Assembly (NCBI GenBank): GCA_017468465.1
Contig: JAFUIN010000018.1
Span: 9,766 to 73,765 of the forward strand
Direction: 5' to 3'
DNA length: 64,000 nucleotides
Source of the DNA: Clostridia bacterium
Lineage (GTDB): Bacteria; Bacillota; Clostridia; UMGS1840
The translations under genes were made by a program, and so were the position numbers. Below are positions 13,848-53,993 of the stretch, one piece after another. Each line of letters begins with the position of its first letter. Positions within the stretch are counted from its first letter, which is position 1. Under the pieces are notes generated by a model. That model worked only from the letters and a program-made list of their open reading frames with translations. It made no database searches and was not told where the DNA came from.

Positions 13848-13857
13848 TTTTGGTTCC

Positions 13858-13990
13858 TTTCTTTCATCCTGACTGTAACGGTCGGTATTGGAATTTCACC
13901 AATTCAGCTCAGATTTTTGAGCGCGTGGACTGTCTGCCAAGTGCGGCACTTACCACCGGTCGGGAATTTCACCCTGTCCTGAAAGTATAT
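13858..13990 (-). promoter_or_regulatory. FMN riboswitch (RFN element)
   Basis: The minus strand reads AGGACAGGGTGAAATTCCCGACCGGTGGTA...GGTGAAATTCCAATACCGACCGTTACAGTCAGGATGAAAGAAAGG, which matches the conserved RFN core blocks. The P1 3' strand abuts the ribU RBS, suggesting translational control. Confidence 0.85.
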
Positions 13991-18624: not shown

Positions 18625-18667
18625 GCATTTTTTCCTTTTATGTTTGAAAGTAAACAATCTTTTTTTG

Positions 18668-18892: not shown

Positions 18893-19096
18893 ATACCTTC
18901 CTCTTTTCCAAATAAAAAATGCGCCAACCGAAGTTGACGCATAAAAATGTATAACTTCGGTACTGTTGCGACACAGTCTGTTCTAAAACAGGATGAACTA
19001 CCAAAGCATACATTTTTAACAAAAGTATGCCCTGTTTTAGAACAATATTCAGCTGCGTCGCAAATATATTGTAACACAGTTTCAGATGAAAAACAA
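18893..19096 (-). promoter_or_regulatory. Promoter plus about 170-nt structured leader with terminator/antiterminator (cassette A)
   Basis: TTGTTT(19091-96)-17-TGT-TACAAT(19068-73). About 98-nt compound hairpin 19063-18966, including a perfect 13-bp inverted repeat (18980-92 / 19031-43). Antiterminator 18953-61/18927-35. Terminator GCGUCAAC-UUCG-GUUGGCGC plus AUUUUUUAUUU at 18910-18940. Confidence 0.5.
19057..19087 (-). repeat. 31-bp direct repeat, copy 2
   Basis: GTCGCAAATATATTGTAACACAGTTTCAGAT; see copy 1. Confidence 0.9.
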
Positions 19097-19210
19097 GCTT
19101 TTTTATATTTTTTTCATAAAAATTGGGTAACTGCTTTCCAGTGACATTACCTGTTTTCACAAAATTTGCGGAATTTGTGGAATCTGCCACTACAATTTCC
19201 CTGATTTTGC

Positions 19211-19239
19211 TTGACAAAATTTTCCCCTTATGCTATGAT
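19211..19239 (+). promoter_or_regulatory. Predicted leu operon promoter
   Basis: TTGACA, 17-nt spacer, TGC-TATGAT. Confidence 0.6.
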
Positions 19240-19274
19240 GAAATCAAATATGATACGAATTGGAGATTGTCTCT

Positions 19275-19367
19275 ATGATGCAATTTACGGCAAACTTATT
19301 TTTCCTGTACTGCATTACCTTGTTGTTATGTTTGGGTAATGCTGTTTGCCGTGCAACCGAAAGATAA
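19275..19367 (+). CDS. Candidate leucine-rich leader peptide (30 aa)
   Basis: GGAGA lies 8 nt upstream. Sequence MMQFTANLFFLYCITLLLCLGNAVCRATER has 6 Leu including LLL-C-L. Sits between the promoter and a terminator just upstream of leuA. Confidence 0.45.
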   Translation: MMQFTANLFFLYCITLLLCLGNAVCRATER

Positions 19368-19390
19368 TCTCTTTTTGAAGGCTATAAAAA

Positions 19391-19434
19391 AGAGTCTGCG
19401 GTTGTATCTGATTGCAACAGCAGGCTTTTTCTTT
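19391..19434 (+). terminator. Leader (attenuator) terminator upstream of leuA
   Basis: Stem 19391-19404 / 19415-19428 (about 11 bp plus AU/GU pairs, one mismatch) followed by TTTTTCTTT. CAACCG at 19354-59 can pair with CGGTTG at 19399-404 as an antiterminator. Confidence 0.55.
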
Positions 19435-19465
19435 ATATAATATTTTTTAAGAAGGAGTGAGAACT

Positions 19466-20968
19466 ATGGCAAAATGTGTGAAAATTTTTGACACAACCTT
19501 GCGCGACGGAGAACAGTCTCCCGGCTGCAGTATGAACCTAACCGAAAAAATTGAGGTGGCTCGTCAGTTAGAACTGTTAAAGGTGGACATCATTGAAGCC
19601 GGCTTTGCCATTGCCTCTCCTATGGATTTTGAATCGGTAAAAGCAATTTCCGGCGCAGTAAAGGATGCAACCGTGGCAAGTTTGGCGCGTGCAACCTATA
19701 AAGATATTGATGCGGCATACGAGGCAGTAAAAGATGCAGTAAGCCCCCGTATTCACACCTTTATTGCAACTTCTCCCATTCATATGCAATACAAGTTGAA
19801 AATGAAAGAAGAAGAGGTAATTGAACGGGTAAAAGAAATGGTTTCCTATGCCAAAAAATACTGTTCTGATGTGGAATTTTCTGCAGAAGATGCTTCCCGC
19901 AGTGACAAAGCCTTTTTAGCCAAAGTGATTGAAACTGCCATTTCAGCCGGTGCCACCACTGTGAACATTCCCGACACGGTGGGATATTCTACCCCTGATG
20001 AATTTGCGGCGTATATCACCTACTTAAAAGAACAGGTTCCGAATATAGAAAAAGCAGATATTTCTGTTCATTGCCACAACGATTTGGGAATGGCAGTTGC
20101 CAACTCTTTAGCAGCAGTCAAAGCCGGTGCAACCCAAGTGGAATGTACCGTAAACGGTATTGGAGAACGTGCCGGAAACACCTCTCTGGAAGAAGTGGTA
20201 ATGGGCATTCAAACCCGAAAAGATTACTACGATGCAGCAACCAACATCAATACCCGTCAGATTTACAGAAGTGCGAAGCTGATTTCTGCCATTACCGGTG
20301 TGAGCATCCCCCCCAATAAAGCCATTACCGGTGCCAATGCCTTTGCGCACGAATCGGGCATTCACCAGCATGGAATGCTCCAGAATCGGCAAACCTACGA
20401 AATTATGACGCCGGAATCTATCGGGAAGCCTGCCATTCAGATGGTTTTGGGAAAACATTCGGGCAGACACGCTTTTGAAGAACGTCTCCAGATTTTAGGC
20501 TATCAACTGACCAAAGAAGAACTGGACTGCACCTTTGAGCATTTCAAACTGTTGGCTGATAAGAAAAAATCTATTACCGACCGTGACATCGAAGCTTTGC
20601 TTGCCAACAAAAAGGTGCAGATTCACGAAACCTATACACTGGAGCGGTTTGTTATCAATTCGGGTAACACCATTACCTCCACCGCTATGATTAAAGTAAA
20701 ATGTGGGGATGATTTCATCGAAAAGGTGGCAACCGGTGACGGTCCCATTGATGCGGCATTCAAGACCATCAATCAGATTACCGAAAAGAATTTTATTTTG
20801 AATGACTATGTAATTCACGCTGTTACCGAAGGCGAAGATGCGTTGGGCGAAGCGGTGGTGAAGCTCCATCTTGACGGCAAAAAAGCAACCGGCAGAGCCA
20901 TCAGCACCGACATTGTGGAAGCAAGTATTAAAGCCTACTTAAATGGCGTAAACAAACTGATTGTGTAA
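19466..20968 (+). CDS. leuA: 2-isopropylmalate synthase
   Basis: About 500 aa with [11 protein letters not shown] and HxH motifs and a C-terminal LeuA dimerisation/regulatory domain. ATG 19466 lies 8 nt after AAGGAG. Confidence 0.9.
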
Positions 20969-20987
20969 GAAAGGGTGACTTTCCCCT

Positions 20988-22247
20988 ATGGGTATGACAA
21001 TGACACAAAAAATTCTGGCACATCACGCAGGGTTAGACTCTGTTGTGCCGGGGCAGCTCGTTATGGCAAAGCTGGATCTGGTACTGGCAAACGATATTAC
21101 TGCTCCGGTTGCCATTAAGGAATTTGAAAAAGCAGGATTAACCTCTGTGTTTCATAAAGACAAAATTGTCTTGGTAATGGACCATTTTTGTCCCAATAAA
21201 GATATTAAAGCGGCAGAACAGGCAATGATTAGCCGCAATTTTTCCAAAAAACACGGCATCACCCACTTTTTTGATGTGGGAGAGATGGGCATTGAACACG
21301 CTTTGCTTCCCGAAAAAGGCTTGGTAAAGCCCGGAGATCTGGTCATTGGTGCCGATTCTCACACCTGTACCTACGGCGCCCTGAATGCCTTCTCCACCGG
21401 AGTGGGCTCCACCGATATGGCGGCGGGGATGGCAACAGGAGAGGCTTGGTTCAAAGTACCCGATGCCATCAAGGTAGAGCTTAGCGGCACACTTCCCCCT
21501 TATGTGACAGGAAAAGATGTGATTCTTCACCTGATTGGGAAAATCGGCGTAGACGGAGCATTATATCAGTCGCTGGAATTTATGGGAGAAGGGGTTCGCA
21601 GTCTTTCCATAGATGACCGCCTCACCATTTCCAATATGGCGATTGAAGCAGGGGCAAAAAATGGCATTTTCCCCTTTGACGAAGTGACAAAGGAATACTT
21701 AAAAGATAAAGTCACCTCATACACCACCTATGCCCCCGATGAAGATGCCACCTATTCTCAATGTGTTAGCATCCATTTAAGTGAATTAAAGCCAACGGTT
21801 TCGTTCCCTCATCTTCCTGAAAATACAAAAACTCCGGAAGAATTTGGAGAAATTAAAATTCATCAGGTAGTCATCGGCTCCTGCACCAATGGAAGATTAT
21901 CCGACTTAAGACAGGCATATGAAATCTTAAACGGCAAAAAAGTGCATCCCGATGTTCGTTGCATCATTATTCCTGCAACGCAGAAAATTTACTTAGAAGC
22001 AATGGAACAAGGCTACTTAAAAGCCTTTATTGAAGCGGGTGCGGTGGTGTCTACCCCCACTTGCGGCCCCTGTCTTGGCGGACATATGGGAATTTTAGCA
22101 GCCGGGGAACGCTGTGTTGCCACCACCAACCGAAATTTTGTGGGCAGAATGGGACACACCGACTCCGAAGTCTATCTGGCAAGCCCCTACGTTGCGGCAC
22201 AAAGTGCTGTGGACGGTATCTTAAGCTGTCCGCTTAAATTTGCTTAA
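20988..22247 (+). CDS. leuC: 3-isopropylmalate dehydratase large subunit
   Basis: 419 aa, aconitase family with Cys ligands (GSCTNG, CGPCLG). Start could also be ATG 20994 or 21000. Confidence 0.9.
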
Positions 22248-22259
22248 GGAGATGGTAGC

Positions 22260-22742
22260 ATGATTTTTGGCACAGTACATAAATATGGCGATAATGTTGA
22301 TACCGATGTCATTATCCCTGCAAGATACTTAAACACATCGGACCCGGAAGAACTGAAACAGCACTGTATGGAGGATATCGACAAGGAGTTTGTCCAAAAG
22401 GTGACTCCCGGTGATGTCATAGTTGCCGAGAAAAATTTTGGCTGCGGCTCCTCCAGAGAACATGCTCCCATTGCTATTAAAGCAAGTGGGATTTCACTGG
22501 TAGTTGCCAAAAGCTTTGCCCGCATTTTCTACCGCAACGCCATCAATATCGGGCTTCCCATTGTAGAATGCAGTGAGGCAGTAGATCACATCCAATCTGG
22601 CGACACCGTAAGCTGCGATTTGGAAAAGGGCGTTCTGACCATCGAAAATAAAGGCCTCACCTTTTCCATCCCCCCTTTTCCGAAGGAAATTCAGGCAATC
22701 ATAGAAAAGGGCGGCTTGCTTGCCAGCATCAAAGGAGAATGA
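22260..22742 (+). CDS. leuD: 3-isopropylmalate dehydratase small subunit
   Basis: 160 aa, aconitase swivel domain (GCGSSREHA). Confidence 0.9.
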
Positions 22743-22746
22743 AAAT

Positions 22747-23814
22747 ATGAACTATAATATTGCAGTCATCCGTGGAGACGGCATTGGTCCGGAGGTTGTG
22801 GCAGAAGCGATTAAGGTGCTTCAAAAAATCGGCTCCGTATATGGACACAACTTTACCTTCACTGATGTTTTAATGGGTGGAATTGCATACGATCAAACAG
22901 GCTCTCCACTCCCACAGGAAACCATAGAAATCTGTAAAAGCTCGGATTCCGTTTTGTTGGGTGCGGTAGGCGGTCCGAAATGGGACAGCTTACCTGGTGA
23001 TAAACGTCCTGAAGCGGGGCTCCTGGGCATCCGAAAAGCGTTGAATCTGTACGCCAATATTCGTCCGGCAGTATTATTTCCTGCCTTAAAAGAAGCCTCC
23101 CCCCTTAAGGAAGAGCTGGTGAAAAACGGCATCAATATTTATGTGGTCAGAGAACTGACCGGTGGCATCTATTTTGGGGAACGTGGCAGACGAACCGGAA
23201 CCTTTGGTGAGGAAGCCTACGACACCGATTGCTACGGTGTGGAAGAAATCCGTCGCATTGCAAAAGTTGCTTTTGAAGCAGCAAGAAAACGAAACAAGAA
23301 AGTCACCAGCATCGACAAGGCAAATGTGTTGGAAAATTCCCGTCTTTGGCGTGAGGTTGTGCACGAAGTGGCAAAAGATTATCCGGATGTTACCGTGTCT
23401 GATATGTTAGTAGATAATGCGGCAATGCAGCTGGTGAAAAATCCTGCTCAGTTTGACGTAGTGCTTGCAAATAATATGTTTGGCGACATCTTATCTGATG
23501 AAGCGGCTCAGATTACCGGTTCTATCGGCATTTTGCCCTCTTCCTCACGAGGAGACGGAACACTGGGGCTTTATGAACCGATTCATGGCTCTGCACCCGA
23601 TATTGCCGGAAAAAATATGGCAAATCCCATCGCAACCATTTTGTCTGTTGCCATGATGCTTCGGGATTCCTTCTCTTTAGAGGCAGAGGCAAAAGCAATA
23701 GAAACTGCTGTAGAAACAGTTTTGAATAACGGTCTTCGCACTGCGGATTTGGGCGGAGAAAATCCCATTTCCTGCAGTCAGATGGGAGACGCCATCCGGG
23801 ATGCCATCTTGTAA
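22747..23814 (+). CDS. leuB: 3-isopropylmalate dehydrogenase
   Basis: [17 protein letters not shown] start after AAAGGAGA, plus the [11 protein letters not shown] family motif. Confidence 0.9.
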
Positions 23815-23826
23815 AGGATTTTTGTT

Positions 23827-24882
23827 ATGGAACTAAAATTAAACGGAAAAAACTACAATTCCAATATTTATATTGAAAAGGAACTCTTAAAAACTGCCGG
23901 TCTGTATGCCAAAAAGCTCACAGACGGGAACGTATTTGTTGTAACTGATTCCAACGTGTTTCCTTTGTATTTTGAAACAGTTCGCACTGCTTTGGAAGAA
24001 CAAGGGCTCAGGGTTTCTTACTACGTTATCCCTGCGGGAGAAGCTTCAAAGTCGCTCTCTATGCTTGGGGTATTGTATGAAGAATGTGTCAAAAACCGCA
24101 TTACCAGAACCGACCTGATTGTAGCATTAGGCGGCGGTGTGGTTGGCGATTTGACAGGATTTTTAGCAGCAACCTATCTTCGTGGTGTTCGTCTGATGCA
24201 AATTCCCACAACATTTCTCGCACAGATTGACTCCTCCGTGGGTGGAAAAACTGCCATTGATTTGCCCTCCGGAAAAAACCTTGTGGGTGCATTTTATCAG
24301 CCCAATGTGGTTCTCATAGATCCGGATACACTCTCAACTCTGTCAGACAAAATTTTTGCTGACGGTATGGCAGAAGCCATTAAATACGGCTGCATCAGAG
24401 ACCGGGAGCTTCTGACGCTGTTAGAATCGCCCAAAGAACATCTTACCCAAATCATTACCCGTTGTGTTACCATCAAAAAAAATGTGGTACAGCAAGATGA
24501 ATTTGACACCGGAGAACGGATGATATTAAACTTTGGGCATACCGTAGGCCACACCATCGAAAAAGCGGGAAACTACATCGAATACACCCACGGTCAGGCG
24601 GTAGCTGTTGGGATGGTGTGTATCGTACAAATAGGGCTGATGCTGGGGAAAATTTCAGAAGAAGAAGCATCGCAAGTTATTTCGCTGATCCGGTCAGCCA
24701 ATCTTCCTCTCTCGGTGCCCTATGATAAAGACGAATGTTTGAAAACCGTCTCTACTGACAAAAAAATGATGGGGGCAACACTGAATGTTGTGTTACCCAA
24801 AGGCCTGGGGGATTGCACCGTGGAGCAATGGAATCCCGATGACTTTGTTAATATGGCAAAAGAAACAGATGTTTTCCTATAA
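23827..24882 (+). CDS. aroB: 3-dehydroquinate synthase
   Basis: 351 aa with GGGVVGDLTGF and SSVGGKTAIDL motifs. Confidence 0.9.
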   Translation: MELKLNGKNYNSNIYIEKELLKTAGLYAKKLTDGNVFVVTDSNVFPLYFETVRTALEEQGLRVSYYVIPAGEASKSLSMLGVLYEECVKNRITRTDLIVALGGGVVGDLTGFLAATYLRGVRLMQIPTTFLAQIDSSVGGKTAIDLPSGKNLVGAFYQPNVVLIDPDTLSTLSDKIFADGMAEAIKYGCIRDRELLTLLESPKEHLTQIITRCVTIKKNVVQQDEFDTGERMILNFGHTVGHTIEKAGNYIEYTHGQAVAVGMVCIVQIGLMLGKISEEEASQVISLIRSANLPLSVPYDKDECLKTVSTDKKMMGATLNVVLPKGLGDCTVEQWNPDDFVNMAKETDVFL

Positions 24883-24886
24883 AAAA

Positions 24887-24926
24887 AGAGGAACAGAAAC
24901 GTAACGCTTCTGTTCCTCTTTTTTTA
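24887..24926. terminator. Bidirectional terminator (aroB / phage-like cluster)
   Basis: 12-bp stem AGAGGAACAGAA/TTCTGTTCCTCT with an A7 run before and a T7 run after. Confidence 0.8.
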
Positions 24927-25118
24927 TTCATTGGGATACATTGCTTCCTTAAGACGCTGTTCCATTCTCTTTACCACAAAGCTTTCCCGTGCTTTTGGAG
25001 GAGCTTTTTTGGTAGGCGTTTTCTCCTTTGCTGCAAGTTGCATAGAAATCCGGTGAAGCAGAAAAAGCTTCATCAGCTCTGTCCCTAACATCACTAACAA
25101 AATCAGAAGTTCTATCAT
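24924..25118 (-). CDS. Small single-TM protein (holin-like size), unknown function
   Basis: 64 aa with a hydrophobic N-terminus (MIELLILLVMLG) and a Lys-rich tail. Its start overlaps the upstream stop (ATGA). Confidence 0.4.
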   Translation of the reverse strand: MIELLILLVMLGTELMKLFLLHRISMQLAAKEKTPTKKAPPKARESFVVKRMEQRLKEAMYPNE

Positions 25119-26905
25119 TTTCTACGCTCCTTTTTCATTTCTAAATACACATTCAGCACCGAAAATTTTTCGGTTTGCCCGACATCAGTCTGCCCCTCAA
25201 TTTCCAAACGGAAAAAATTGCCGGATACATTTGGTGTACACCTGGTTTCTGTAAAATCACTATGAAAATATCGGTGGTTCCACTGCGATTTTCCATAGAT
25301 CAGATGGCTTGTGTTCTCCAGCTTTTCTGCTTTACATTCCTGCTCGGAAGAAAGCTTTACCTCGCAGTCCAGATGATTGAAGCATCCCTTCACTTTCACA
25401 ACCATTTGTGTGCAACGGGCAATTTCGTTTTCATTGACAGAGGGAAGCACCCCAAAACAAACACGATATGAAATCGGCTCATCGGTGTCGGTTTCCGGCT
25501 GATAATCAAAGTGACATTCAGCATCAAATCCTACCACATAGTTCCCACGTCCCAGAAGAAGCCGTCCGCTGTAATCTTCTGCGATGCAGCGGCAGGCAAT
25601 TCCCTCATAGCAGGTAAAGGCACCGGAGGAAACGTGATATATCAATATCTTATCATCCAATACCAGATAATATTTTCCCTGTCTGTAATACGCAAACGCA
25701 TTGTTTGGGGACTGCGGAAGTGTCACCTTTCCCTTTGATAAAAACTTATAAAGCGAGCTGGAGGGAGAATATAGCATTTGAACCGTCAGCATGGAGGAAG
25801 AAAACGACATCAGCTCTCCGTTGGAATAAAAGCTGACACTGCCCGGTGTCAGACAAATTGTGCTTCCGAATTTTGTTCCGTTTGGAACACTTAGTAAGGA
25901 CCATTGCCCATCTTCTGTAGGGTCGGAACCGACATAATGGCTCCAGCCGTATTCATAACAAACCACCACCGATTTTTCCACCACCAAAAGCCCGGTAATT
26001 TTTCCAAGATTCAAGTGGGGGTAAAGCACATTCACTTCTGAAAAGCTGCACCAGTTATTCGGTTCGCTGATATAAAGTGCGGTCGGATTTTTTTTGTTTC
26101 CTGCTGCAAAATAACGCATGGAGGGCGGGTGCCACACAAAATGCTTGCAGGAAAATGCCGTCTGTGTCACCCCCGGTAAATCCAACACATCCGGAAATAT
26201 ATCGGAAAGAGAGGTCATCTCGCTGATAGAAAAAAAGGTGTGCTCATAGTAACCTTTTTTCATATCTACCGTAATTTTGCTCCCTGCCGTATATTTCATA
26301 AAAACTGCACCGCCTATTTTCCCCAATCGGATAAACGGCGCTTGTTTTATCAGCTCATGAATGTTTTCCTTCGATGCGTTGGTGCGGTTGTCGCAGTAAT
26401 ACAACACGCCCGTATCACTGTCTATAATATGATGCCCAAACAAATCAGCCGGAAAGTCTCCGTCTGTGGTGTAGTCATCCTCCAGCTGCTCCAGAAACAG
26501 GCACAAATTCTGAGGCTCCTCCAATGTAATTTCTCCGTCGCATCTGCGATATAAGGGAAGCATGGTTTTTCCGATTCCCCCAAACAAAAAGCCGTAACCG
26601 CCGGTGGTGTGAATTACCTGAATGCCGGAGGCGTGCATTGTCAGATTACAGTTTGTTCCTGCTACCACAATTTCTGCTGTCGGTGCGGTATCCACCAGCA
26701 AAATTTCGTGTCCTTTCGGGCTTAACAGCTTGTGAATGCCTTTTACCTCATTGGAAAAAGGCCCGTAAATCTTTTTGGTTCCGTCACGAACCGTCAGTCC
26801 GCCGTTTTCAATTTCAAAATTACTGATATCCTCCACTTCGTCGCTTTTCATCAGATAAGGGGACTTGCAGTTTACCATTCCACCTGAAAAATCGTAATAA
26901 TCCAT
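25115..26905 (-). CDS. Phage structural protein, possibly a T7 gp12-type tail tubular B / nozzle protein
   Basis: 596 aa, beta-rich. The N-terminal pattern DFSGGM...(N)...GGLTVRDG resembles my recollection of nozzle-protein N-termini (LKGGIS...GLQKRP). Position follows an adaptor-like gene. RBS GGAGGT. Confidence 0.4.
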   Translation of the reverse strand: MDYYDFSGGMVNCKSPYLMKSDEVEDISNFEIENGGLTVRDGTKKIYGPFSNEVKGIHKLLSPKGHEILLVDTAPTAEIVVAGTNCNLTMHASGIQVIHTTGGYGFLFGGIGKTMLPLYRRCDGEITLEEPQNLCLFLEQLEDDYTTDGDFPADLFGHHIIDSDTGVLYYCDNRTNASKENIHELIKQAPFIRLGKIGGAVFMKYTAGSKITVDMKKGYYEHTFFSISEMTSLSDIFPDVLDLPGVTQTAFSCKHFVWHPPSMRYFAAGNKKNPTALYISEPNNWCSFSEVNVLYPHLNLGKITGLLVVEKSVVVCYEYGWSHYVGSDPTEDGQWSLLSVPNGTKFGSTICLTPGSVSFYSNGELMSFSSSMLTVQMLYSPSSSLYKFLSKGKVTLPQSPNNAFAYYRQGKYYLVLDDKILIYHVSSGAFTCYEGIACRCIAEDYSGRLLLGRGNYVVGFDAECHFDYQPETDTDEPISYRVCFGVLPSVNENEIARCTQMVVKVKGCFNHLDCEVKLSSEQECKAEKLENTSHLIYGKSQWNHRYFHSDFTETRCTPNVSGNFFRLEIEGQTDVGQTEKFSVLNVYLEMKKERRK

Positions 26906-26911
26906 AGTGTG

Positions 26912-27442
26912 CTACCTCCACTTCGGTGCTTGAATCGACGCCGGCTTTCTTCTTGCTTTTTTTGTCATACTGCTATGGATTGCCGCACAGTTGTCATAGA
27001 ATTCTTCTACCAGCTTGTCTGCCAGCCGATTGGACGGGTCATCGCTTCGCAACACAGAAAACGCTACATATTTGCATAGCTCTCCTTCATATTCGGGTGC
27101 AACCGGAATATTTTCGTTTTCCGACAAGCGCCCCGAAAACCCTTGATAATAATACACAAGATACTCTCCCTGGTGGGAAACAAACAATCCGATTTCGTCC
27201 AAATGGTATTCCAAATATCGGCTTTTCTCCCGATATATTTTATAAATTCCTTTATTTTGCGGAATAGAGACAGGTGTTTCGGGGTCGCTTACAATCACTC
27301 GCACACACTTTACTGGGCAAGCAGTGGGATACTGTGCAGTTAACAGCAAAAGCCCTTCTGTCAGATAAATATTTGCCAGTGACGTATCAATTTGTTTCCC
27401 AATTAAAACTGATGCCACATCTGCGATTTCTTTTAAGGTCAT
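26912..27442 (-). CDS. Phage structural protein, possibly a gp11-type head-tail adaptor
   Basis: 176 aa. Size, position and loose N-terminal and C-terminal pattern similarity to T7 gp11 as I recall it. RBS AAGGAGG. Confidence 0.35.
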   Translation of the reverse strand: MTLKEIADVASVLIGKQIDTSLANIYLTEGLLLLTAQYPTACPVKCVRVIVSDPETPVSIPQNKGIYKIYREKSRYLEYHLDEIGLFVSHQGEYLVYYYQGFSGRLSENENIPVAPEYEGELCKYVAFSVLRSDDPSNRLADKLVEEFYDNCAAIHSSMTKKARRKPASIQAPKWR

Positions 27443-27466
27443 AGTTTGTCCTCCTTTTTTATAATG

Positions 27467-27859
27467 TTACAGAAAACGGGTGGAAAAAGCTTTATCATCT
27501 ACCCATTCTCTGGATTCGTGAGTGTTCAGATAAGAAAGTACTTCCTTGGTTTTTTCGGAAGATTCCTCTCCGAAGTTTCCCATTGTTTTTTCTAATTTTT
27601 GGTTGTGTTCATCCATTTCCCGAATCAGTCTGTTCATATTGGAAACGGCAGTTTTTCGCACAAGTTCCACGGTTCTTGCATCCAGCTCGGCATAAGGAAC
27701 AGTCAAACAAAAGGTTGTGTGCGGTTGGTCCTTGTGATGCACCTCGAAGGTTTTCTTATGATGATTTCGCACCACAAAATACCCCGCATCAATTTCCAAA
27801 AGCCGTTCCGGAATCTGATACACATTGGTGTTTAATTTGGTTAAATGCGGTTGTAACAT
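27467..27859 (-). CDS. Hypothetical protein of the phage-like cluster
   Basis: 130 aa, RBS AAAGAGGTG, no recognised motif. Confidence 0.5.
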   Translation of the reverse strand: MLQPHLTKLNTNVYQIPERLLEIDAGYFVVRNHHKKTFEVHHKDQPHTTFCLTVPYAELDARTVELVRKTAVSNMNRLIREMDEHNQKLEKTMGNFGEESSEKTKEVLSYLNTHESREWVDDKAFSTRFL

Positions 27860-27874
27860 GTTGCACCTCTTTAT

Positions 27875-27905
27875 AAAAAAAGAAGCTGCGACATTTCGTC
27901 ACAGC
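27875..27905 (-). terminator. Intrinsic terminator immediately after the capsid gene
   Basis: Minus-strand RNA GCUGUGAC-GAAAU-GUCGCAGC (8 bp, one GU pair) followed by UUCUUUUUUU. Confidence 0.6.
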
Positions 27906-27954
27906 CTCTCTCGTTTGGCATTTTTGTTTGCCGCTTGTTTCAAAAATGTCCTGA

Positions 27955-29103
27955 TTACGCGGTAATTCCCTTTAATCTTGCCTGTCCGCCCGGATGGTCG
28001 CACAGCAGCTCGCCGTATTTTGCCAAAACGGCTGTCCATGCAGGTTTGCCGGCAATCTGTTTTAAGATTTTTCCGTCATCATCCAGCCAGTCCCAATCGG
28101 ACAGGGTGTGCATTGCGAAGGATTTGGAGTTTAACAAATCCATGGTACCATCAGGACAATGACGGTCAGCAACCAACGGAATTCCGCTGAAGGAAATTGC
28201 CTGGAATCCGCCTTCTAAAGTCATGGGGTCAATATTTCTTCTGGTTAATTCCAGGTAAGAAAGATAGTTTCTTCTCACGTCATAAGAGCAAGAAATATAG
28301 TCTACAGTGCTTCCGGCATTTTCTTCTAAGTAATCAATCGCAGTCTGAATTTTCAAGTCAGAAATTGCACCGGTGTTTTCGGAAATATACGGCATCATCC
28401 AGTAGTTTTCGCTACGGTCTACACCGTATAAAGGTTGAGTAGTATCGGAAGTTAAAATAGCTCCTAACCCGGTAATTTCTTTCTGGTAAGAATTCTGAAC
28501 TGTGATTTTATCGCCCACAGAAGCTGTCACATTGCTGTCTAACACAACAATCTTTTCAGGACGGTTAATGGCAACAATTCTTTTTGCTTTTTCGGTGGAG
28601 GAGGGGCCAATGATGTCAATAATCATCCCCTCCATCAGATATTTCACCGAATCCACCTGTACACTGTTGTCGTTACTGTCTTCCACGGTTGCAATGACTC
28701 CGGTACCGTCGGTGAACAGTGCTCTGGAATAGTTGAATTTGGCTGCTTCTAAAATGCCTTTCATTTCCTGTGTGAGTAAATCCACAAAGGAGTTGGTGTT
28801 GAGACGAGACGCTTTCATCGCCTTATCGGAAATTTCAATTACTCCGTACATATCTTTGGTGGTAGTCTCAAAGTGAGTATATTTGTTGGAACCTGCCTGC
28901 GGAAGATTGCCGGAATCGGAAGAAAAACCGAAACCGCCGTTTAACGCGTAGGGGGCAAGTCTTACCACCTTATGCCCGATAATGTTTTTGGAGGTTGTAA
29001 CAATTTTGTTGTAAAAAGGGTTGGTATTTGTGTTTAACTGGTTTCTTAAAACGTCCAGATAAAAGCTTTTCAGCGCCGCATCTGCTGTGTTGGTAGTAAT
29101 CAT
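27955..29103 (-). CDS. HK97-fold phage major capsid protein
   Basis: 382 aa. The central block KYTHFETTTKDMYGVIEISDKAMKASR...LTQEMKGILEAAKFNYSRALFTDGTG parallels the HK97 gp5 pattern (...VQASRQVMDD...LLNGDGTG). Follows a scaffold-like gene. Confidence 0.75.
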   Translation of the reverse strand: MITTNTADAALKSFYLDVLRNQLNTNTNPFYNKIVTTSKNIIGHKVVRLAPYALNGGFGFSSDSGNLPQAGSNKYTHFETTTKDMYGVIEISDKAMKASRLNTNSFVDLLTQEMKGILEAAKFNYSRALFTDGTGVIATVEDSNDNSVQVDSVKYLMEGMIIDIIGPSSTEKAKRIVAINRPEKIVVLDSNVTASVGDKITVQNSYQKEITGLGAILTSDTTQPLYGVDRSENYWMMPYISENTGAISDLKIQTAIDYLEENAGSTVDYISCSYDVRRNYLSYLELTRRNIDPMTLEGGFQAISFSGIPLVADRHCPDGTMDLLNSKSFAMHTLSDWDWLDDDGKILKQIAGKPAWTAVLAKYGELLCDHPGGQARLKGITA

Positions 29104-29158
29104 AATAAAAAGTCCTTTCCTGTCTGCCAGGGGGTGAACAATTTCACTCCCCCGACAG

Positions 29159-29689
29159 TTATTTTTTCACCATCTGAAGAAATAAATCGCCCGCTTCTTC
29201 AAAGGTTTTGGGTTTCGTACCCGGAGTGGTGTAAAACTCACCGCCTTGTCCGGAAATCAGTGCCGGGGGCGTTTGAGACAAGCGCTCCATATACTCACGG
29301 TAGGGCGCAGGAGGAGTTGTGAGCGCTCGTTTTGCAAGGGTAAAGGCAGAAGACAAATCCAAAGACAAAAGCTCCGGATTTTCTGTCAGATAAGAGATAA
29401 ATTCGTAAGCCCGATGGGTTAAGGCGTTCTCTTCCAAGAAGGCGTCAAGGTCATTTTGAAACTGTGTCATCTCATCCGGGATAGTTGCCTCCTCCAGAAG
29501 TTCTCTTGCCTCTTTCAGTTCTTCTCTGGTCTGAGAAATATATCGTTCACTTTCCCGATAAGCCTTTTCCAGCTCACCATAGTCTTTGAACTTGCCGAGA
29601 ATTAAAGGGGTGTCCCCATTCTCTCCCTGATCGGTCTCACTTGCCGGCGGAATTGCTTCCAACGCAGCGTCGGTCAGATTGTCAATCAT
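29159..29689 (-). CDS. Phage scaffolding-like protein
   Basis: 176 aa, acidic and helical. The ILGKFKDYGELEKAYRESE motif is common in phage scaffold/head-assembly proteins. Lies directly upstream of the capsid gene. Confidence 0.6.
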   Translation of the reverse strand: MIDNLTDAALEAIPPASETDQGENGDTPLILGKFKDYGELEKAYRESERYISQTREELKEARELLEEATIPDEMTQFQNDLDAFLEENALTHRAYEFISYLTENPELLSLDLSSAFTLAKRALTTPPAPYREYMERLSQTPPALISGQGGEFYTTPGTKPKTFEEAGDLFLQMVKK

Positions 29690-29895
29690 TGGTATTCATT
29701 CCTTTCTGTGTTTGTTTCTAAAAAAGCCGAACACGGTCGGCAAAGAAAAGCGGGAAAACCGATATGATTACCACTCCGGGGACTTTCTTCGGCTTCCGCA
29801 CCAACAGTATGCCAAAAATGTTGCTTCTTTACAAGTTCAACATTTTTTCAGCTTTTTTCAAACAATTTTTCTCCCAAAAAATACGTCTGTTTTTA

Positions 29896-29924
29896 TTGAC
29901 AATTACAAAAAAAGGTAGTATAAT
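29896..29924 (+). promoter_or_regulatory. Predicted serCA promoter
   Basis: Consensus TTGACA, 17-nt spacer, TATAAT. Confidence 0.65.
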
Positions 29925-30025
29925 TATTTTAATATTTGGAAAGCACATTGTTAAAAAACAGACAAAGTGCTTCAAATATAAAAATTTGACCGAAAAACAA
30001 AGAAAACAGAATGGGGAATCACATC

Positions 30026-31108
30026 ATGGAAAGAGTATACAATTTCAGCGCAGGGCCGTCTGCGTTACCGGTAGAGGTATTAAAAAAAGCGGCAGATGAA
30101 ATGTTAAATATGGGTGGTACAGGCATGTCCGTTATGGAAATGAGCCACCGTTCCAAAGATTATCAGGCAATTATTGACCGTGCAGAAGAGCTGTTTCGCG
30201 AGCTGATGGAAATTCCGGATGATTATGCCGTGTTATTCCTGCAGGGCGGTGCATCCTCTCAGTTTGCCATGATTCCTCTGAACCTGATGAACAACAGCGG
30301 AAAAGGGGATTATGTTATCACCGGTCAGTGGGCAAAAAAAGCCTACCAGGAAGGGGCGCACTATGGCGATGCTTATCAGGTAGCCTCCAGTGCTGATAAA
30401 ACCTTCTCCTACATTCCCAAATTAGATAAATCCATGTTCCGTCCCGATGCAGACTTTGTACATATCACCTTAAATAACACCATCTACGGAACCAAATTCA
30501 ACGAGCTGCCCGACGTGGGAGACGTTCCGCTGATTGCGGATATTTCTTCTTGCATTTTGTCCGAAAAGCTGGATGTTTCCAAATTTGGCATGCTTTATGC
30601 AGGTGCACAGAAAAACATTGGCCCGGCAGGTCTTACCGTGGTGATTATCCGTAAAGATTTAATCGGCAACGCCCGGGATATTACACCCATTATGTTCAAC
30701 TATCAGACTCACCTGGATTCCGGTTCTATGTATAACACTCCTCCCACCTACGGCATCTACATCTGCAAATTGGTGCTGGAATGGTTGAAAGATTTAGGCG
30801 GTGTGGAAAAAATTCAGGAATTAAACTACAAAAAAGCAAAAATTTTATATGATTATTTAGATTCTTCCGAGTTCTTTACCGGAACCGTGGTAAAAGAAGA
30901 CCGTTCCATTATGAACGTTCCCTTCCTTTCACCCTCTGATGAACTGAATAAAAAATTCATTCAGGAAGCAAAAGAAGCCGGCCTTGTAAACTTAGCAGGT
31001 CACCGCAGTGTTGGCGGTATGCGTGCAAGTATTTACAATGCAATGCCCGTGGAAGGCGTGCAGGCGCTGGTGGACTTTATGAAAAAATTTGAAGCAGAAA
31101 ACAAGTAG
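30026..31108 (+). CDS. serC: Phosphoserine aminotransferase
   Basis: MERVYNFSAGPSALP N-terminus typical of SerC, class V aminotransferase. Confidence 0.9.
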   Translation: MERVYNFSAGPSALPVEVLKKAADEMLNMGGTGMSVMEMSHRSKDYQAIIDRAEELFRELMEIPDDYAVLFLQGGASSQFAMIPLNLMNNSGKGDYVITGQWAKKAYQEGAHYGDAYQVASSADKTFSYIPKLDKSMFRPDADFVHITLNNTIYGTKFNELPDVGDVPLIADISSCILSEKLDVSKFGMLYAGAQKNIGPAGLTVVIIRKDLIGNARDITPIMFNYQTHLDSGSMYNTPPTYGIYICKLVLEWLKDLGGVEKIQELNYKKAKILYDYLDSSEFFTGTVVKEDRSIMNVPFLSPSDELNKKFIQEAKEAGLVNLAGHRSVGGMRASIYNAMPVEGVQALVDFMKKFEAENK

Positions 31109-31125
31109 AAAGGTGGCTGAAATTT

Positions 31126-32280
31126 ATGAAAATTGCTACTTTGAATAAAATCTCTGAAATTGGCTTGAAAGAGCTGAAGCCTGCCTATGAAATTACCGAC
31201 GAATTAGCCGGAGCAGCCGGGGTGTTGGTTCGCAGTGCCGCAATGCACGATATGGACCTTCCTAAAGAGCTTCACGCTATTGCAAGAGCTGGTGCAGGGG
31301 TTAATAATATTCCCATCGACAAATGTTCCGAAGAAGGAATTGTGGTATTTAATACGCCCGGTGCCAATGCCAATGCGGTAAAAGAATTGGTGATCGCAGG
31401 TCTGCTTCTTTCCTCCCGTGATATTATCGGTGGAAATGCCTGGGCAAAAACATTAACCGAAGATGTTGCAAAGGCTGTGGAAAAAGGCAAAGGCATGTTT
31501 GCCGGTGTCGAAATTTTCGGCAAAACCTTGGGCGTCATCGGCTTGGGTGCCATTGGTGCAAAGGTGGCAAACATTGCTTTGGATTTGGGTATGAAGGTTA
31601 TCGGCTATGACCCCTTCATTTCCATTGACGGTGCCTGGAGAATTTCCAAAAATGTTGTTCATGCAACCGACTTAAAACAAATCTACGAAAATTGCGATTA
31701 TATTTCTATTCACGTTCCGTTAACGCCCGATACCAAGGGCTTCATCAACAATGAAACCATCAGCCAAATGAAGCAGGGCGTTGTAATCTTAAACTATGCA
31801 AGAGCAGCTTTGGTTGCTGATGATGACATCAAAGCAGCCCTCTCCAGCGGAAAGGTTCGCCGCTATGTAACCGACTTCCCGGATGGTGACATTGCAAGCT
31901 ACCCCGGTGTCATTGCATTCCCCCATTTGGGTGCATCTACCGAAGAATCGGAAGAAAACTGTGCTTATATGGCAGCAATGCAGCTGAAAGATTATTTGGA
32001 AAACGGAAACATCAAAAACTCTGTAAACTTCCCGGAAGTGAATTTCCCCAGAGGCATGGGTCAGAAACGTGTGGTTGTGTTGCATAAAAACATTCCTTCC
32101 ATGCTGGCACAGATTTCCGGCGAATTTTCTAAACTGTCTATGAATATTGACAATATGCAGAACCGTTCCAAAAAGGAATATGCTTGCACAGTGCTGGATG
32201 TATCTGGCGATATCCCTGCAGAAACAGAAAACAGCTTAAAAGCGATTGAAGGAGTTATTCGTGTAAGAATTTTAGATTAA
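31126..32280 (+). CDS. serA: D-3-phosphoglycerate dehydrogenase
   Basis: 384 aa, 2-hydroxyacid dehydrogenase with a GLGAIG NAD fold and a C-terminal ACT-like domain. Follows serC. Confidence 0.85.
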   Translation: MKIATLNKISEIGLKELKPAYEITDELAGAAGVLVRSAAMHDMDLPKELHAIARAGAGVNNIPIDKCSEEGIVVFNTPGANANAVKELVIAGLLLSSRDIIGGNAWAKTLTEDVAKAVEKGKGMFAGVEIFGKTLGVIGLGAIGAKVANIALDLGMKVIGYDPFISIDGAWRISKNVVHATDLKQIYENCDYISIHVPLTPDTKGFINNETISQMKQGVVILNYARAALVADDDIKAALSSGKVRRYVTDFPDGDIASYPGVIAFPHLGASTEESEENCAYMAAMQLKDYLENGNIKNSVNFPEVNFPRGMGQKRVVVLHKNIPSMLAQISGEFSKLSMNIDNMQNRSKKEYACTVLDVSGDIPAETENSLKAIEGVIRVRILD

Positions 32281-32292
32281 GCTTTCTGTTAT

Positions 32293-32432
32293 GGCTTGAT
32301 AAAAGAACATAGACCGCAAAAGGCATAGGATTTCCTATGCTTTTTGTTTTTATAAGGTGAAAATTTATGTGCCACAAATTTTTAGATTATAATGCCTTTT
32401 GCTGTAAACCGATCTCACCGCTCGGCGTAGCA
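32293..32432 (+). repeat. About 140-bp structured repeat, left copy (begins GGCTTGATAAA, contains the serA terminator hairpin)
   Basis: Roughly 85-90% identical by eye to the reverse complement of 34442-34582. Confidence 0.85.
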
Positions 32433-32548
32433 TTGCATGCAGCATAAGTACGCCTTCGGGATCATGCCGTACGCAGTACCCCCTGCGGGGTTAGTTGCTT
32501 CATTCTATGTCCGTTTCGCTGCCCTTGATATAACGTCATATAAAACTA

Positions 32549-32582
32549 TAAAAGGCATAGGGAAAAGCCCTATGCCTTTTTT
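32549..32582. terminator. Terminator downstream of putP (bidirectional hairpin)
   Basis: GGCATAGGG-AAAAG-CCCTATGCC flanked by A- and T-runs. Confidence 0.7.
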
Positions 32583-32609
32583 GTTTATTATTCTTTTTAC
32601 CAAGTGGTT

Positions 32610-34121: not shown

Positions 34122-34177
34122 GTCTATAATCTCCTTTTTCTGAATTTCTGCCAGCAGAAATTCACAATTTGTATTCT

Positions 34178-34206
34178 ATTATAATATAAAAAACGCAATA
34201 AGTCAA
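34178..34206 (-). promoter_or_regulatory. Predicted putP promoter
   Basis: Minus strand reads TTGACT, 17-nt spacer, TATAAT. Confidence 0.65.
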
Positions 34207-34441
34207 GAAAATGGGGAAATATTTTACAAAAAGTGGATAAAGCTTGCATAATATGCAAAATTATGCAAGTCCGAAGGTTTGGAAAAATTTGTTCAAGGGA
34301 GGTTGTCTGTCAATTTTGAGAAGCCGCTACAGCCACTGAGAATCTTTTTTGAAGTTTGCACTAACTTTGCGTTGAGATTCCTCGACTCCACTCGGAATGA
34401 CAGCTAATGACCGCTTTAGTCCGAATGGTGTCTGAAACATG

Positions 34442-34582
34442 TGCTACGCCGAGAGGTGAGGTTAGTTGATAGCAAAAGGCATTATAATTAAAATTTGTGG
34501 GACACAAATTTTCACCTTATAAAAACAAAAGACATAAGGAAAATCCCTATGCCTTTTGCGGTCTGTATTCTTTTATCAAGCC
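34442..34582 (-). repeat. About 140-bp structured repeat, right copy (inverted relative to the left copy; begins 2 nt after the acpP stop)
   Basis: See 32293-32432. Contains a terminator hairpin and a perfect 10-bp hairpin AAAATTTGTG-GGA-CACAAATTTT. Confidence 0.85.
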
Positions 34583-34584
34583 TT

Positions 34585-34809
34585 TTATGCGTTTTCTTTT
34601 AAGTATGCGACAACATCGCCAACGGTGCTGATTCTTTCCGCGGCGTCATCGGGGATGTCGATTCCAAATTCGTCTGAAAAAGCCATAATCAGTTCTACAA
34701 CGTCCAAAGAGTCTGCACCCAGGTCATCTACCAGGGTAGATGCAGGGGTAACCTTATCCTCGTCGATGCCTAACTGTTCTACGATAATGTCTTTTACCTT
34801 GTCGAACAT
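34585..34809 (-). CDS. acpP: Acyl carrier protein
   Basis: 74 aa with the DLGADSLD phosphopantetheine attachment motif. Confidence 0.9.
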
Positions 34810-52215: not shown

Positions 52216-53568
52216 ATGGCAAAAGAACATTTACTGAAAAAACATAAAGATACTGACTATAAGAAAAAAGCAGATGCTTTTTGTGAAGACTATAAAGCCT
52301 TTCTCACCACTGCAAAAACGGAACGTCTTTGTGTGGAATATTTCACCGAAAAGGCAAAAGCAAACGGCTTTACCGATGTTTTAGCTTCACAGGGTGTAAA
52401 AGCAGGAGATAAGGTTTACTATGTCAATAAAAACCGCTCTCTTGTGCTGGCAGTTATCGGAGAAGAGGACATCGAAAACGGCATCAATCTGGTTGCCGCA
52501 CACATTGACTCACCCCGTCTGGACTTAAAACCTGCACCGGTAACCGAGGAAGGCGGATTTTCCTATCTTCGCACCCATTACTATGGTGGCATCAAAAAAT
52601 ATCAGTGGGTGGCAACACCCCTGGCACTTTACGGTGTTGTAGTGAAGAAAAATGGCGAAACTGTAAAAATTGCCATTGGTGATGGGGAAAATGACCCCAT
52701 TTTCATGATTACCGATTTGCTTCCTCATTTAGCCTCCAAGCAGATGGGGCAGAAAATGACCGAAGGAATCCCCGGTGAAAAGCTGATGGTATTATCCGGC
52801 TCCAATCCCGATTTGGATGCAGAAAGCGAAGAAGTTAAGGGTGCGCTCCTGAAAATTTTAGAAGAAAAATACAGCATTTCGGAGGAAGATTTTTATTCTG
52901 CCGAAATTGAAGTGGTTCCCCAAGGTGCTGCCCGTGATGTAGGGTTTGACCGCAGCATGGTGGCTTCCTACGGTCACGATGACAGAGTCTGTGCCTATAC
53001 AGCATTCCAGGCGCTTTTAGAAACCGGCATTCCTAAGAAAACTGCAGTGGTTCTGCTTGCCGACAGAGAAGAAGTGGGCAGTATGGGAAATTCCGGCATG
53101 CAATCCAGATTTTTGGAATACTTTTTAGAAGAAGTAAATCCTTCTGCCCGTATCAATAAAGTGATGGCAAACACCGTTTGCCTGTCCTCTGACGTTGCGG
53201 CAGCCTTTGACCCCATGTATGCAGACGTGTACGAAAAGCAGAATTCTCCCATCTTCGGATGCGGACTCACCCTGCTTCGTTACACCGGCTCCCGCGGAAA
53301 AGGCGGCTCCTCCGAGGCGAGCGCAGAGCTGGTTGCCTATATCCGTAACATTTTTGATGCCAACAATATTTCTTACCAGTTTGCAGAACTGGGGAAAGTA
53401 GATGAAGGTGGCGGCGGAACCGTAGCCCAGTATATCGCCAACTTAGGAGCCGACGTCATTGATGCCGGCGTTGCGCTGCTTTCCATGCACGCACCCTATG
53501 AAATTGCTCACAAGATGGATGTATATGAAGCATATCGCGCATATATTGCGTTTATGACGGCTCGATAA
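52216..53568 (+). CDS. M18-family aminopeptidase
   Basis: 450 aa with HIDSPRLDLKP, GHDDRVC, DREEVGS and SMHAPYE blocks. Confidence 0.8.
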   Translation: MAKEHLLKKHKDTDYKKKADAFCEDYKAFLTTAKTERLCVEYFTEKAKANGFTDVLASQGVKAGDKVYYVNKNRSLVLAVIGEEDIENGINLVAAHIDSPRLDLKPAPVTEEGGFSYLRTHYYGGIKKYQWVATPLALYGVVVKKNGETVKIAIGDGENDPIFMITDLLPHLASKQMGQKMTEGIPGEKLMVLSGSNPDLDAESEEVKGALLKILEEKYSISEEDFYSAEIEVVPQGAARDVGFDRSMVASYGHDDRVCAYTAFQALLETGIPKKTAVVLLADREEVGSMGNSGMQSRFLEYFLEEVNPSARINKVMANTVCLSSDVAAAFDPMYADVYEKQNSPIFGCGLTLLRYTGSRGKGGSSEASAELVAYIRNIFDANNISYQFAELGKVDEGGGGTVAQYIANLGADVIDAGVALLSMHAPYEIAHKMDVYEAYRAYIAFMTAR

Positions 53569-53961
53569 ACAGCGCATAATGGATGCTATGCCGTGCACAG
53601 TACTTCTGCATCCGTTTCTCATCGCCTTATCTATATGGTGACGGCTTGATAAACAGTGTGCATAATGGATGCTATGCCGTACGCAGTACTTCTGCATCCG
53701 TTTCTCATCGCCTTATCTATATGCTGACGGCTTGATAAACAGTGTGCATAATGGATGCTATGCCGTACGCAGTACTTCTGCATCCGTTTCTCATAGCCTT
53801 ATCTATATGGTGACGGCTTGATAAACAGTGTGCATAATGGATGCTATGCCGTACGCAGTACGCAGTACTTCTGCATCCGTTTCTCGTCACCTTATCTATA
53901 TGGTGACAGCTCGATAAACAGCGCGCATAACGGATGCTATGCCGTACGCAGTACTTCTGCC
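53557..53961 (+). repeat. Tandem repeat, about 4.6 copies of an 84-93 bp unit
   Basis: Units start at 53557, 53641, 53727, 53813 and 53906 (partial). The consensus is ACGGCTTGATAAACAGTGTGCATAATGGATGCTATGCCGTACGCAGTACTTCTGCATCCGTTTCTCATCGCCTTATCTATATGGTG. The first unit contains the stop codon of the aminopeptidase gene. Confidence 0.9.
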
Positions 53962-53993
53962 TGAAAGGTGGGCAGGGAAGGGATAAATTTACT

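Follow-up and report, generated by a model that had tools for sequence, protein, structure and literature searches.

The window examined here is a 64,000-nt stretch of contig JAFUIN010000018.1 from an uncultured Clostridia bacterium, in which the motif GGCTYGATAAA recurs at the 3' ends of three genes: serA, acpP and the gene of an M18 aminopeptidase. As judged from sequence comparison, this motif is the 5' head of an imperfect-palindromic, non-coding repeat of ~120 nt. The genes concerned (all assigned by Pfam) and a tandem array are the following:

31126-32280, + strand, serA
32610-34121, - strand, an SSF symporter, named PutP by sources (putP below)
34585-34809, - strand, acpP
34855-35847, - strand, plsX
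52216-53568, + strand, M18 aminopeptidase
53934-54878, + strand, era
53555..53960, + strand, tandem array of 4.7 units of 86 nt with 90% matches (Tandem Repeats Finder)

GGCTYGATAAA has six exact matches in the window, at 32293 (+), 34572 (-) and 53559, 53643, 53729 and 53815 (all +), against a chance level of 0.10 per window, and none of 100 shuffled sequences gave six. It begins 12 nt downstream of the serA stop codon (TAA, 32278-32280) and 2 nt downstream of the acpP stop (34585-34587), and it overlaps the TAA stop of the aminopeptidase (53566-53568). The first-pass annotation of this DNA had placed the motif at these three stops, and our coordinates agree. Its claim that every array unit opens with the motif holds exactly for four units, while the fifth, partial unit carries one mismatch (AGCTCGATAAA). 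The serA and acpP copies form an inverted pair (32293-32433 versus 34582-34440) of ~141 nt with roughly 90% identity and abrupt divergence beyond. The segment downstream of serA is in turn connected to the array by the 16-mer ATGCCGTACGCAGTAC, which is present exactly at 32464-32479 and in four array units (seven matches with at most three mismatches in the window, compared to 0.1 expected). Downstream of the 16-mer follows TCCGTTTC, after a gap of 30 nt in the serA copy and 7 nt in the array unit; the earlier description was thus correct for the 16-mer and the serA gap, but had given 8 nt for the array. The same segment had been called hairpin-rich, and we could locate both a P1-type hairpin (GGCGTA...TACGCC, 32424-32454) and a P2 hairpin (CCCC-TGC-GGGG, 32480-32490) in it.

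Alignment of the copies from the window with those from relatives (contigs bearing L numbers below) gives a common order of parts: the head GG(C/T)TTGA(T/G)AAA(A/T)GG, a 5' stem strand, CTC(A/C)CCGCTCG, hairpin P1, CTTCGGG, hairpin P2, a 3' stem strand and the tail CC(T/A)TTTCTC..GCC, with a conserved CTCACCGCTCG between the 5' stem strand and P1. Pairing joins the head (GGCTTGATAAAAG...) to the tail (...CCTTTTCTC.(N).GCC), and likewise the two inner strands, so that a single branched hairpin with two small arms at its tip results. Head and tail are complementary, with covariation, in all full copies, and the complementarity extends through the whole element and not the termini alone; the element is therefore an imperfect palindrome over its entire length, like the intergenic repeats of the ERIC/REP type (roughly 30-130 nt, outside coding sequence), and the only coding overlap is 6 nt at the aminopeptidase stop. 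The earlier statement that obvious terminal inverted repeats are lacking has to be revised in this light, and GGCTTGATAAA is the intrinsic end of the element and no signal of its own. The unit is normally followed by an intrinsic terminator, here called T (GCAAAAGGCATAGGG...CCTTATGTCTTTTTG).

The proposed fold was examined in seven copies from five loci, covering 33 pairs and 226 cells, with shuffled and slid-register controls. Standard pairs filled 94.2% of the cells compared to 84.4% in shuffles. Changes on both sides were found in 12 of the 33 pairs, compared to 4.8 ± 1.5 in shuffles (none of 500 reached 12) and one to three in slid registers. Minimum free energy (MFE) folding gave z-scores, relative to shuffles, of -6.3 for the intact L021 copy and -7.0 for the intact L027 composite. 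Pairing is nearly all Watson-Crick (209 of 226 cells), and G.U pairs number four when read on the + (sense) strand and six on the - (antisense) strand. The G.U counts consequently gave no signal as to which strand of the body is folded, although an early RNAalifold run favoured antisense. Two further candidates were rejected: a tRNA-like T-arm (GGTTCGATTTC), which has no complementary stem, and a 58-aa open reading frame (ORF; 32437-32613, +) running through the element body, which has no Pfam match and whose frame is not conserved between copies.

Some copies are composite, in that an insert of 85-89 nt interrupts the 5' stem strand after the head and a segment X (GGCTTGATAAAAG + AACATAGA(A/C)C). 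This form was found at the serA and acpP copies of the window and in L025, L027 and L028. In the window, the composites and adjoining features are as follows:

32293..32315, + strand, head GGCTTGATAAAAG and X AACATAGACC, forming the 5' side of the stem that closes the serA-3' composite, complementary to tail TTCTATGTCC(G/T)TTTC
32316..32402, + strand, 87-nt nested insert of the serA-3' composite (85-89-nt counterpart in L025, L027 and L028)
32316-32347, + strand, terminator hairpin HP1 followed by a T-run, within the insert
32360-32382, + strand, AT-rich palindrome AAAATTTATGTGCCACAAATTTT, within the insert
32388-32393, + strand, TATAAT box, within the insert
32392-32402, + strand, distal arm ATGCCTTTTGC within the insert, complementing the 5' arm of HP1
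32403..32525, + strand, body and tail of the serA-3' copy (covariance-model match 32382-32530, 60.8 bits, E=1.8e-10; alignments)
32424-32454, + strand, P1 hairpin of the serA-3' element with a 19-nt loop expansion (alignments)
32480-32490, + strand, P2 hairpin of the serA-3' element (alignments)
32504-32525, + strand, tail TTCTATGTCCGTTTCGCTGCCC of the serA-3' element (alignments)
32550..32580, serving putP (-) and the serA-side element (+), HP2, a perfect 13-bp palindromic terminator AAAAGGCATAGGG-AAAAG-CCCTATGCCTTTT
32583..32606, - strand, degenerate head and X CACTTGGTAAAAAGAATAATAAAC, 3 nt past the putP stop (compare TAA GAAC GGCTTGATAAAAGAACATAGAAC + T in L027)
34440..34582, - strand, truncated acpP-3' composite (truncation also in L027; complete copy in L025)

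The serA-3' body consists of the inner stem strand, a conserved CTCACCGCTCGG, P1, CTTCGGG, the 16-mer ATGCCGTACGCAGTAC, P2 and the tail. The acpP-3' composite contains head, X, terminator hairpin HP3 (34559-34525), AT-palindrome (34512-34490), TATAAT and inner stem strand, and its body ends after the 5' arm of P1 (GGCGTAGCA). Judging by its sequence, the degenerate head and X at putP is the remnant of a putP-3' composite that L027 has complete. Downstream of the truncated element, the acpP-putP spacer also holds another short repeat, GTCATTCCGAG-N(8-12)-GAGGAATCTCAACG, in one copy in the window (34290-34440) and two copies in L027 (4660-4830), and this repeat appears to have taken the place of the 3' half of the acpP element.

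The insert comprises terminator T with its T-run, an AT-rich palindrome (AAAATTTGTG-N3-CACAAATTTT), a TATAAT-like box and ATGCCTTTTGC, the exact complement of the 5' arm of T. Composite head and X are still complementary to the tail (TTCTATGTCCTTTTCTC), and MFE folding of the L027 composite, which is intact, closes the long-range stem between them around the nested hairpins. The arms of the AT palindrome covary among copies (TTTGTG/CACAAA, TTTACG/CGTAAA, TTGTTT/AAACAA), which argues that it acts as a hairpin and not as a fixed protein site. The T hairpins HP1, HP2 and HP3 satisfy the pattern of intrinsic terminators, and their G.T wobbles and T-runs are confined to the sense strand, in agreement with the uniform orientation of the copies. 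As the element comes with an intrinsic terminator, the earlier idea of a terminator cassette is a reasonable one. As in intrinsic terminators generally, the T module has a G+C-containing stem and a T-run right after coding regions; ordinary terminators, however, do not form sequence families, whereas T recurs in several species with about 85-95% identity at serA, acpP and putP, physically linked to the palindromic body.

The composite could also be regarded as an independent small RNA (sRNA) gene. T would then end the mRNA, the AT palindrome and TATAAT would serve as operator and promoter, and the ~125-nt body would be an sRNA ended by the next terminator (about 32400-32590, +, in the window), the simple form being a fragment of the same RNA derived from the 3' untranslated region (UTR). 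In line with this, the left (serA) copy of the window, L027 copy C2 and L028 all have T, palindrome, TATAAT, body and terminator in this sequence, the downstream terminator of L028 being a different one; the body shows strong structure and covariation, and all copies are co-oriented with transcription. A terminator is present in three of the four complete composites. However, the TATAAT-like box has neither a recognisable -35 hexamer nor a TG extension, and it was not called in a promoter scan. It is intact in the window and L027, but degenerate in L025 (TTGTAAT) and L028 (TAAAAAT), and a promoter function is on these grounds unlikely. Moreover, the palindrome covaries as a hairpin even inside one genome (L027 copies C1 and C2), which speaks against a sequence-specific operator; the body has hardly any G.U pairing and no strand asymmetry; it matches no Rfam family; and at acpP it is truncated in two species without replacement. 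We therefore regard an independent sRNA gene as unlikely.

The copies analysed come from 64 kb of this genome and from pieces of 1-13 kb from relatives, and a covariance model was built from six of them. Full copies scored 60-139 bits against this model and the window array units 1-4 scored 35.3-24.5 bits. The full-length copies are alignable, being roughly 60-90% identical by eye, although they lie at non-homologous loci:

3' of serA: L021, L028 and the window
3' of the M18 aminopeptidase gene: L013, L014, L015 and the window array
3' of acpP: L025, L027 and the window
3' of putP: L027 and the window remnant
3' of rplL: L024

The distance from stop codon to head is 12, 13, 3 and 5 nt at serA, 2, 5 and 4 nt at acpP, 4 and 3 nt at putP and 62 nt at rplL, with overlap at the aminopeptidase gene. 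In L021, the unit lies 13 nt past the serA stop, is ~85% identical to the L013 unit and has a homologue of the HP1/HP3 terminator behind it. In L028, a composite orthologous to the serA-3' composite of the window starts 3 nt past the serA stop. L025 has a complete copy 4 nt past the acpP stop, and L027 has a truncated copy 5 nt past acpP and another copy 4 nt past putP. In L024, a metagenome contig from the Joint Genome Institute (JGI), the copy lies directly after the rplL terminator. Every copy is co-oriented with its upstream gene (six loci). The view of the first-pass annotation that one modular, structured family sits at gene 3' ends is thereby extended to putP and rplL and to at least eight related genomes.

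The dispersed copies, at five to six distinct loci, are polymorphic for presence and absence. The full element is absent between the aminopeptidase gene and era in L017, at putP in L025 and L026, and at serA in L022, which has nothing there, and in L018, which has a remnant of head and X and a different terminator. A diverged, weak extra copy follows another gene in L021 (2594-2717, E=0.085), and the corresponding window site (27860-27955) is empty. In relatives, the spacers downstream of serA, part of the same rearrangement-prone region, also hold one or two copies of a second repeat family (L018 7230-7870, L019 7230-7880, L021 7420-7510 and L028 4660-4770), ending GATAGAACAGCCGTGCGGCG...GGGGGTAAG(A/G)GGATTGTTAAGGG...GTTCCCCCTG.TCCCTTAAC.

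Beyond these relatives, a search of JGI metagenomes with a 25-mer from P1 gave one match, the rplL-3' copy of L024. A 25-mer query found nothing in viral contigs, and the intact 278-nt composite had no match in plasmid and phage collections (blastn in distant mode). Scanned against Rfam by E-value, neither 32200-34700 and 53400-54100 nor the intact copies of L013, L014, L015, L021 and L024 gave anything credible, and Rfam 15 at gathering thresholds found nothing in the window but an unrelated flavin mononucleotide (FMN) riboswitch. This riboswitch (RF00050, 101 bits, 13852-13990, -) lies directly upstream of a 191-aa ORF (13272-13847), which by synteny with L018 is the S component of an ECF riboflavin transporter.

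At the aminopeptidase gene the repeat has altered the protein end itself. Among contigs with homologues of 81-87% identity, L013, L014 and L015 carry a non-coding unit of ~120 nt right at the stop, while L017 (81% aminopeptidase identity) has a 33-nt spacer and no unit. The aminopeptidase of L013 ends ...TTT ATG GCT TGA TAA A, so that GGCTTGATAAA is both the gene end and a double stop; in array unit 1 of the window TGA has become CGA, and the aminopeptidase reads one codon on, to TAA. The C-termini are FMA, FMAR, FMTAR or FMGA in the unit-bearing clade and AFLK(x) in L017 and all more distant homologues. It follows from this contrast that arrival of the unit remodelled the last aminopeptidase codons and supplied the stop.

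The array that begins here, with unit 1 overlapping the last codons and the stop of the gene, is built from an internally deleted element consisting of head, a GGATGC...GCATCC stem, the 16-mer core and tail. Downstream of its full unit, L013 has another, partial one that contains ATGCCGTACGCAGTACTTCTGCATCCATTTCTC exactly, and ~150 nt on from the head it agrees exactly with the window unit in ATGCCGTACGCAGTACTTCTGCATCC(A)TTTCTC. The 86-nt unit of the window equals the head of an L013-type first unit joined to ATGCCGTACGCAGTACTTCTGCATCCATTTCTC, which identifies it as an internal deletion derivative that was later amplified. That the tandem unit is a shortened derivative had been proposed before, and the full elements that L013, L014 and L015 hold between the aminopeptidase gene and era bear this out. 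Since the repeat register takes in the last aminopeptidase codons (ATG(GT)GACGGCT), amplification came after insertion; it may have proceeded by unequal exchange between the similar head and tail motifs. Among element copies, the ATGCCGTACGCAGTAC patch between P1 and P2 is an extra of the window serA copy only, and its presence in the array suggests sequence exchange between the two loci. In other samples of the same species (L004-L011) the array has 2.7, 3.7 or 4.7 units, and five of the contigs end or carry N-runs inside it; the differing counts reflect either a variable-number repeat or assembly collapse and are not reliable. A small ORF on the reverse strand through the array (122 aa, 53717-54085, -) was rejected on account of indels between copies that are not multiples of three and the 86-nt period.

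The serA and acpP copies, which the first-pass annotation had read as inverted copies, owe their opposite orientation to a chromosomal inversion. In the closest relatives, L027 and L025, the gene order is plsX-acpP-putP-leuA-leuC-leuD-leuB, and in L018 and L021 it is serC-serA-82aa-CuAO_N1-aroA-cdaA. In GCA_054287165.1, a single 20-kb contig (L025 and L028) carries plsX through putP and leuA to serC-serA on a single strand. Blastn aligned L027 1-6582 with window 39084-32538 (-) and L027 6787-11512 with window 19089-23816 (+), and L018 1605-7184 with window 26760-32321 (+) and L018 8063-13148 with window 18919-13789 (-). This collinearity demonstrates that the window lineage has inverted the following segment:

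19089..32540, no strand, ~13.4 kb, leuA-leuCDB ... serC-serA (blastn collinearity)

The serA-3' and acpP-3' composites, opposed today because of the inversion, were ancestrally direct repeats on the same strand. A composite transposon with putP as cargo within the 141-nt inverted repeats is therefore rejected: acpP and putP were already neighbours ancestrally (L025, L027), and in L028, whose order is uninverted, the left arm goes with serA.

The right endpoint of the inversion lies within ~15 nt of HP2 (32550-32580), with the breakpoint placed at about 32538-32565. Among the T hairpins, HP2 alone has arms of perfect symmetry, and the degenerate head and X (32606-32583) flanks it on the putP side. 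The idea that HP2 arose from two 5' arms fused exactly in the loop was not borne out, as collinearity with L027 continues across the entire hairpin as far as 32538. A causal role of the palindromic repeat in the inversion is plausible. At the left junction lies the second copy (19057-19111) of a 55-nt direct repeat with 82% identity, derived from the CuAO_N1 promoter region, the first copy being at 18585-18639. Within the inverted segment, at 19276-19450, a strong promoter (TTGACA-17-TATGAT) is separated from leuA by a leader ORF of 31 codons (ATGATGCAATTTACGGCAAACTTATTTTTCCTG...) and a hairpin resembling a terminator; L027 and L025 have the same arrangement, which looks like a leader-peptide attenuator.

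An inversion endpoint at a palindrome, tandem amplification and the nearly pure, strand-symmetric Watson-Crick pairing would all suit a site that acts at the DNA level, that is, a cruciform or hairpin to which a protein of the nucleoid, of recombination or of replication binds in the manner of REP/BIME sequences, for which transcription is irrelevant. Such a site does not, however, account for the strict co-orientation with the upstream gene at six loci or for terminators whose G.T wobbles and T-runs are on the sense strand only, and the copy number seen is low. We consider this possibility very improbable.

Taken together, we interpret the copies as a new dispersed, non-coding palindromic repeat family, similar to miniature inverted-repeat transposable elements (MITEs) or ERIC sequences, that carries or recruits a terminator, occupies the first nucleotides after stop codons and is, within the sequences searched, restricted to a small group of uncultured Clostridia; we give this interpretation a probability of about 0.6. 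The unit would be transcribed together with the upstream gene, serving as its 3' UTR and terminator and providing a stable 3' stem-loop and the transcription end. Its spread may have come about through transposition in trans or through recombination of 3' flanks with one another.

Several results weigh against this interpretation. The search space described above limits claims on copy number and on positional bias. A covariance-model scan of the window with filters off found no copies beyond the four known sites. A scan of species-representative genomes with a 20-nt exact pattern (ATGCCGTACGCAGTACN{2,3}CTGC), which is too specific to the window subtype, gave one true match, the orthologous aminopeptidase-era site of L013, and one chance match in a Planctomycete sequence. 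The near-absence of G.U pairs means that the body carries no RNA-strand signal, and a palindrome at the DNA level fits equally well. No reciprocal hairpin was found at the left inversion junction (18919-19089), which leaves repeat-mediated inversion unproven. The flanks of five independent insertions contain no consistent direct repeat from which a target-site duplication (TSD) could be defined; head and post-tail sequence are loosely alike (GGCTTGATAA versus GCCTTGGATAA / CCCTTGATATAA) but do not form a clean TSD. Neither was an autonomous insertion sequence (IS) with matching ends seen in ~240 kb of window and relatives' sequence, nor a clean empty/filled pair at nucleotide resolution, the species being too diverged. 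Finally, recombination or gene conversion alone could suffice for the spread.

This last point leads to a reading in which the 3'-flank module (a stop-proximal stem with terminator) is not mobile, but was copied by ectopic recombination or gene conversion and kept as a good transcript end, the copies being a few ancient segmental duplications in one rearrangement-prone region. All window copies do lie within 22 kb, and the gene order of the region differs in every relative examined. The serA subtypes differ by species, L021 having the simple form, nearly identical to the aminopeptidase copy of L013, and the window and L028 the composite, which fits conversion, as does the 16-mer patch common only to the left copy and the array of the window. 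Besides the lack of a TSD, no transposase genes were found in the window or in 28 further loci. On the other hand, the rplL copy (L024) stands in an unrelated context, the diverged copy after another gene is present in L021 only, and the insertion in the last aminopeptidase codons remodelled the C-terminus. In addition, all loci have the same sharply bounded head and tail ends, as one would sooner expect of a discrete element than of arbitrary segmental duplication. For these reasons we find copying of a non-mobile module unlikely. As regards a known mobile type, an IS200/IS605-type PATE with a TTGAT target was rejected because the ends are complementary, the GGC before TTGAT is conserved and pairs with the tail, and P1 and P2 differ in sequence.

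A bolder version of the dispersed-repeat interpretation, which we judge improbable, is that the element is a mobile 3'-end cassette which inserts specifically at, or survives only at, the first nucleotides after a stop codon and acts as a portable, translation-sensing terminator or insulator. The head brings stop codons in two frames, and in such a scheme a stem starting within reach of the ribosome could couple translation termination to folding of the terminator or to alternative pairings, in which the tail could pair either with the upstream head and X or with a downstream X beside T.

The family can be compared to several known types of small repeats. ERIC/IRU sequences of Enterobacteria are ~120-nt imperfect palindromes that form one long hairpin, are intergenic, often lie in transcribed 3' flanks and have size variants resulting from internal indels. 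The Clostridia element likewise is a ~120-nt whole-unit palindrome in 3' flanks with size variants, but it has no sequence relationship to ERIC/IRU, belongs to another phylum, abuts stop codons within a few nt, travels with a specific terminator and has a low copy number so far. The Correia elements of Neisseria and the pneumococcal RUP and BOX elements are hairpin-forming dispersed repeats of 100-150 nt that are co-transcribed with their neighbours, may have terminator or promoter activity and promote rearrangements. The present element is a small hairpin-forming dispersed repeat too; Correia and RUP, however, have clear terminal inverted repeats, TA duplication and a candidate transposase, unlike the Clostridia element as seen here. 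QMITE1 and QMITE2 of Coxiella burnetii are long, palindromic, non-autonomous repeats that overlap functional gene 3' ends by 1-50 bp, can contribute the last residues of the protein together with its stop codon, and are in some cases transcribed as sRNAs (PMC5896051). The Clostridia element shares with them the overlap of a palindromic repeat with a gene 3' end and the supply of a stop; in contrast to QMITE1/2, it has no known IS partner and is known from few loci.

The repeat family is thus previously undescribed but of a familiar kind among small bacterial repeats, its unusual trait being how tightly it is tied to stop codons. Proteobacteria and a few pathogens are well known to carry small palindromic repeats; to our knowledge, such repeats have hardly been catalogued in uncultured gut-type Clostridia. 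In the present clade a housekeeping peptidase owes its altered C-terminus and its stop codon to the repeat, which also supplies the predicted terminators of serA, acpP and putP, and one of the terminator hairpins of the repeat adjoins an endpoint of a 13-kb inversion. Its array breaks short-read assemblies, as several contigs end or hold N-runs inside it. The family is a useful marker for strain typing and calls for caution when gene ends and "sRNAs" are annotated in these metagenome-assembled genomes. If it is true that the proximity to stop codons reflects targeting or coupling to translation, the element would represent a natural portable 3'-end module.

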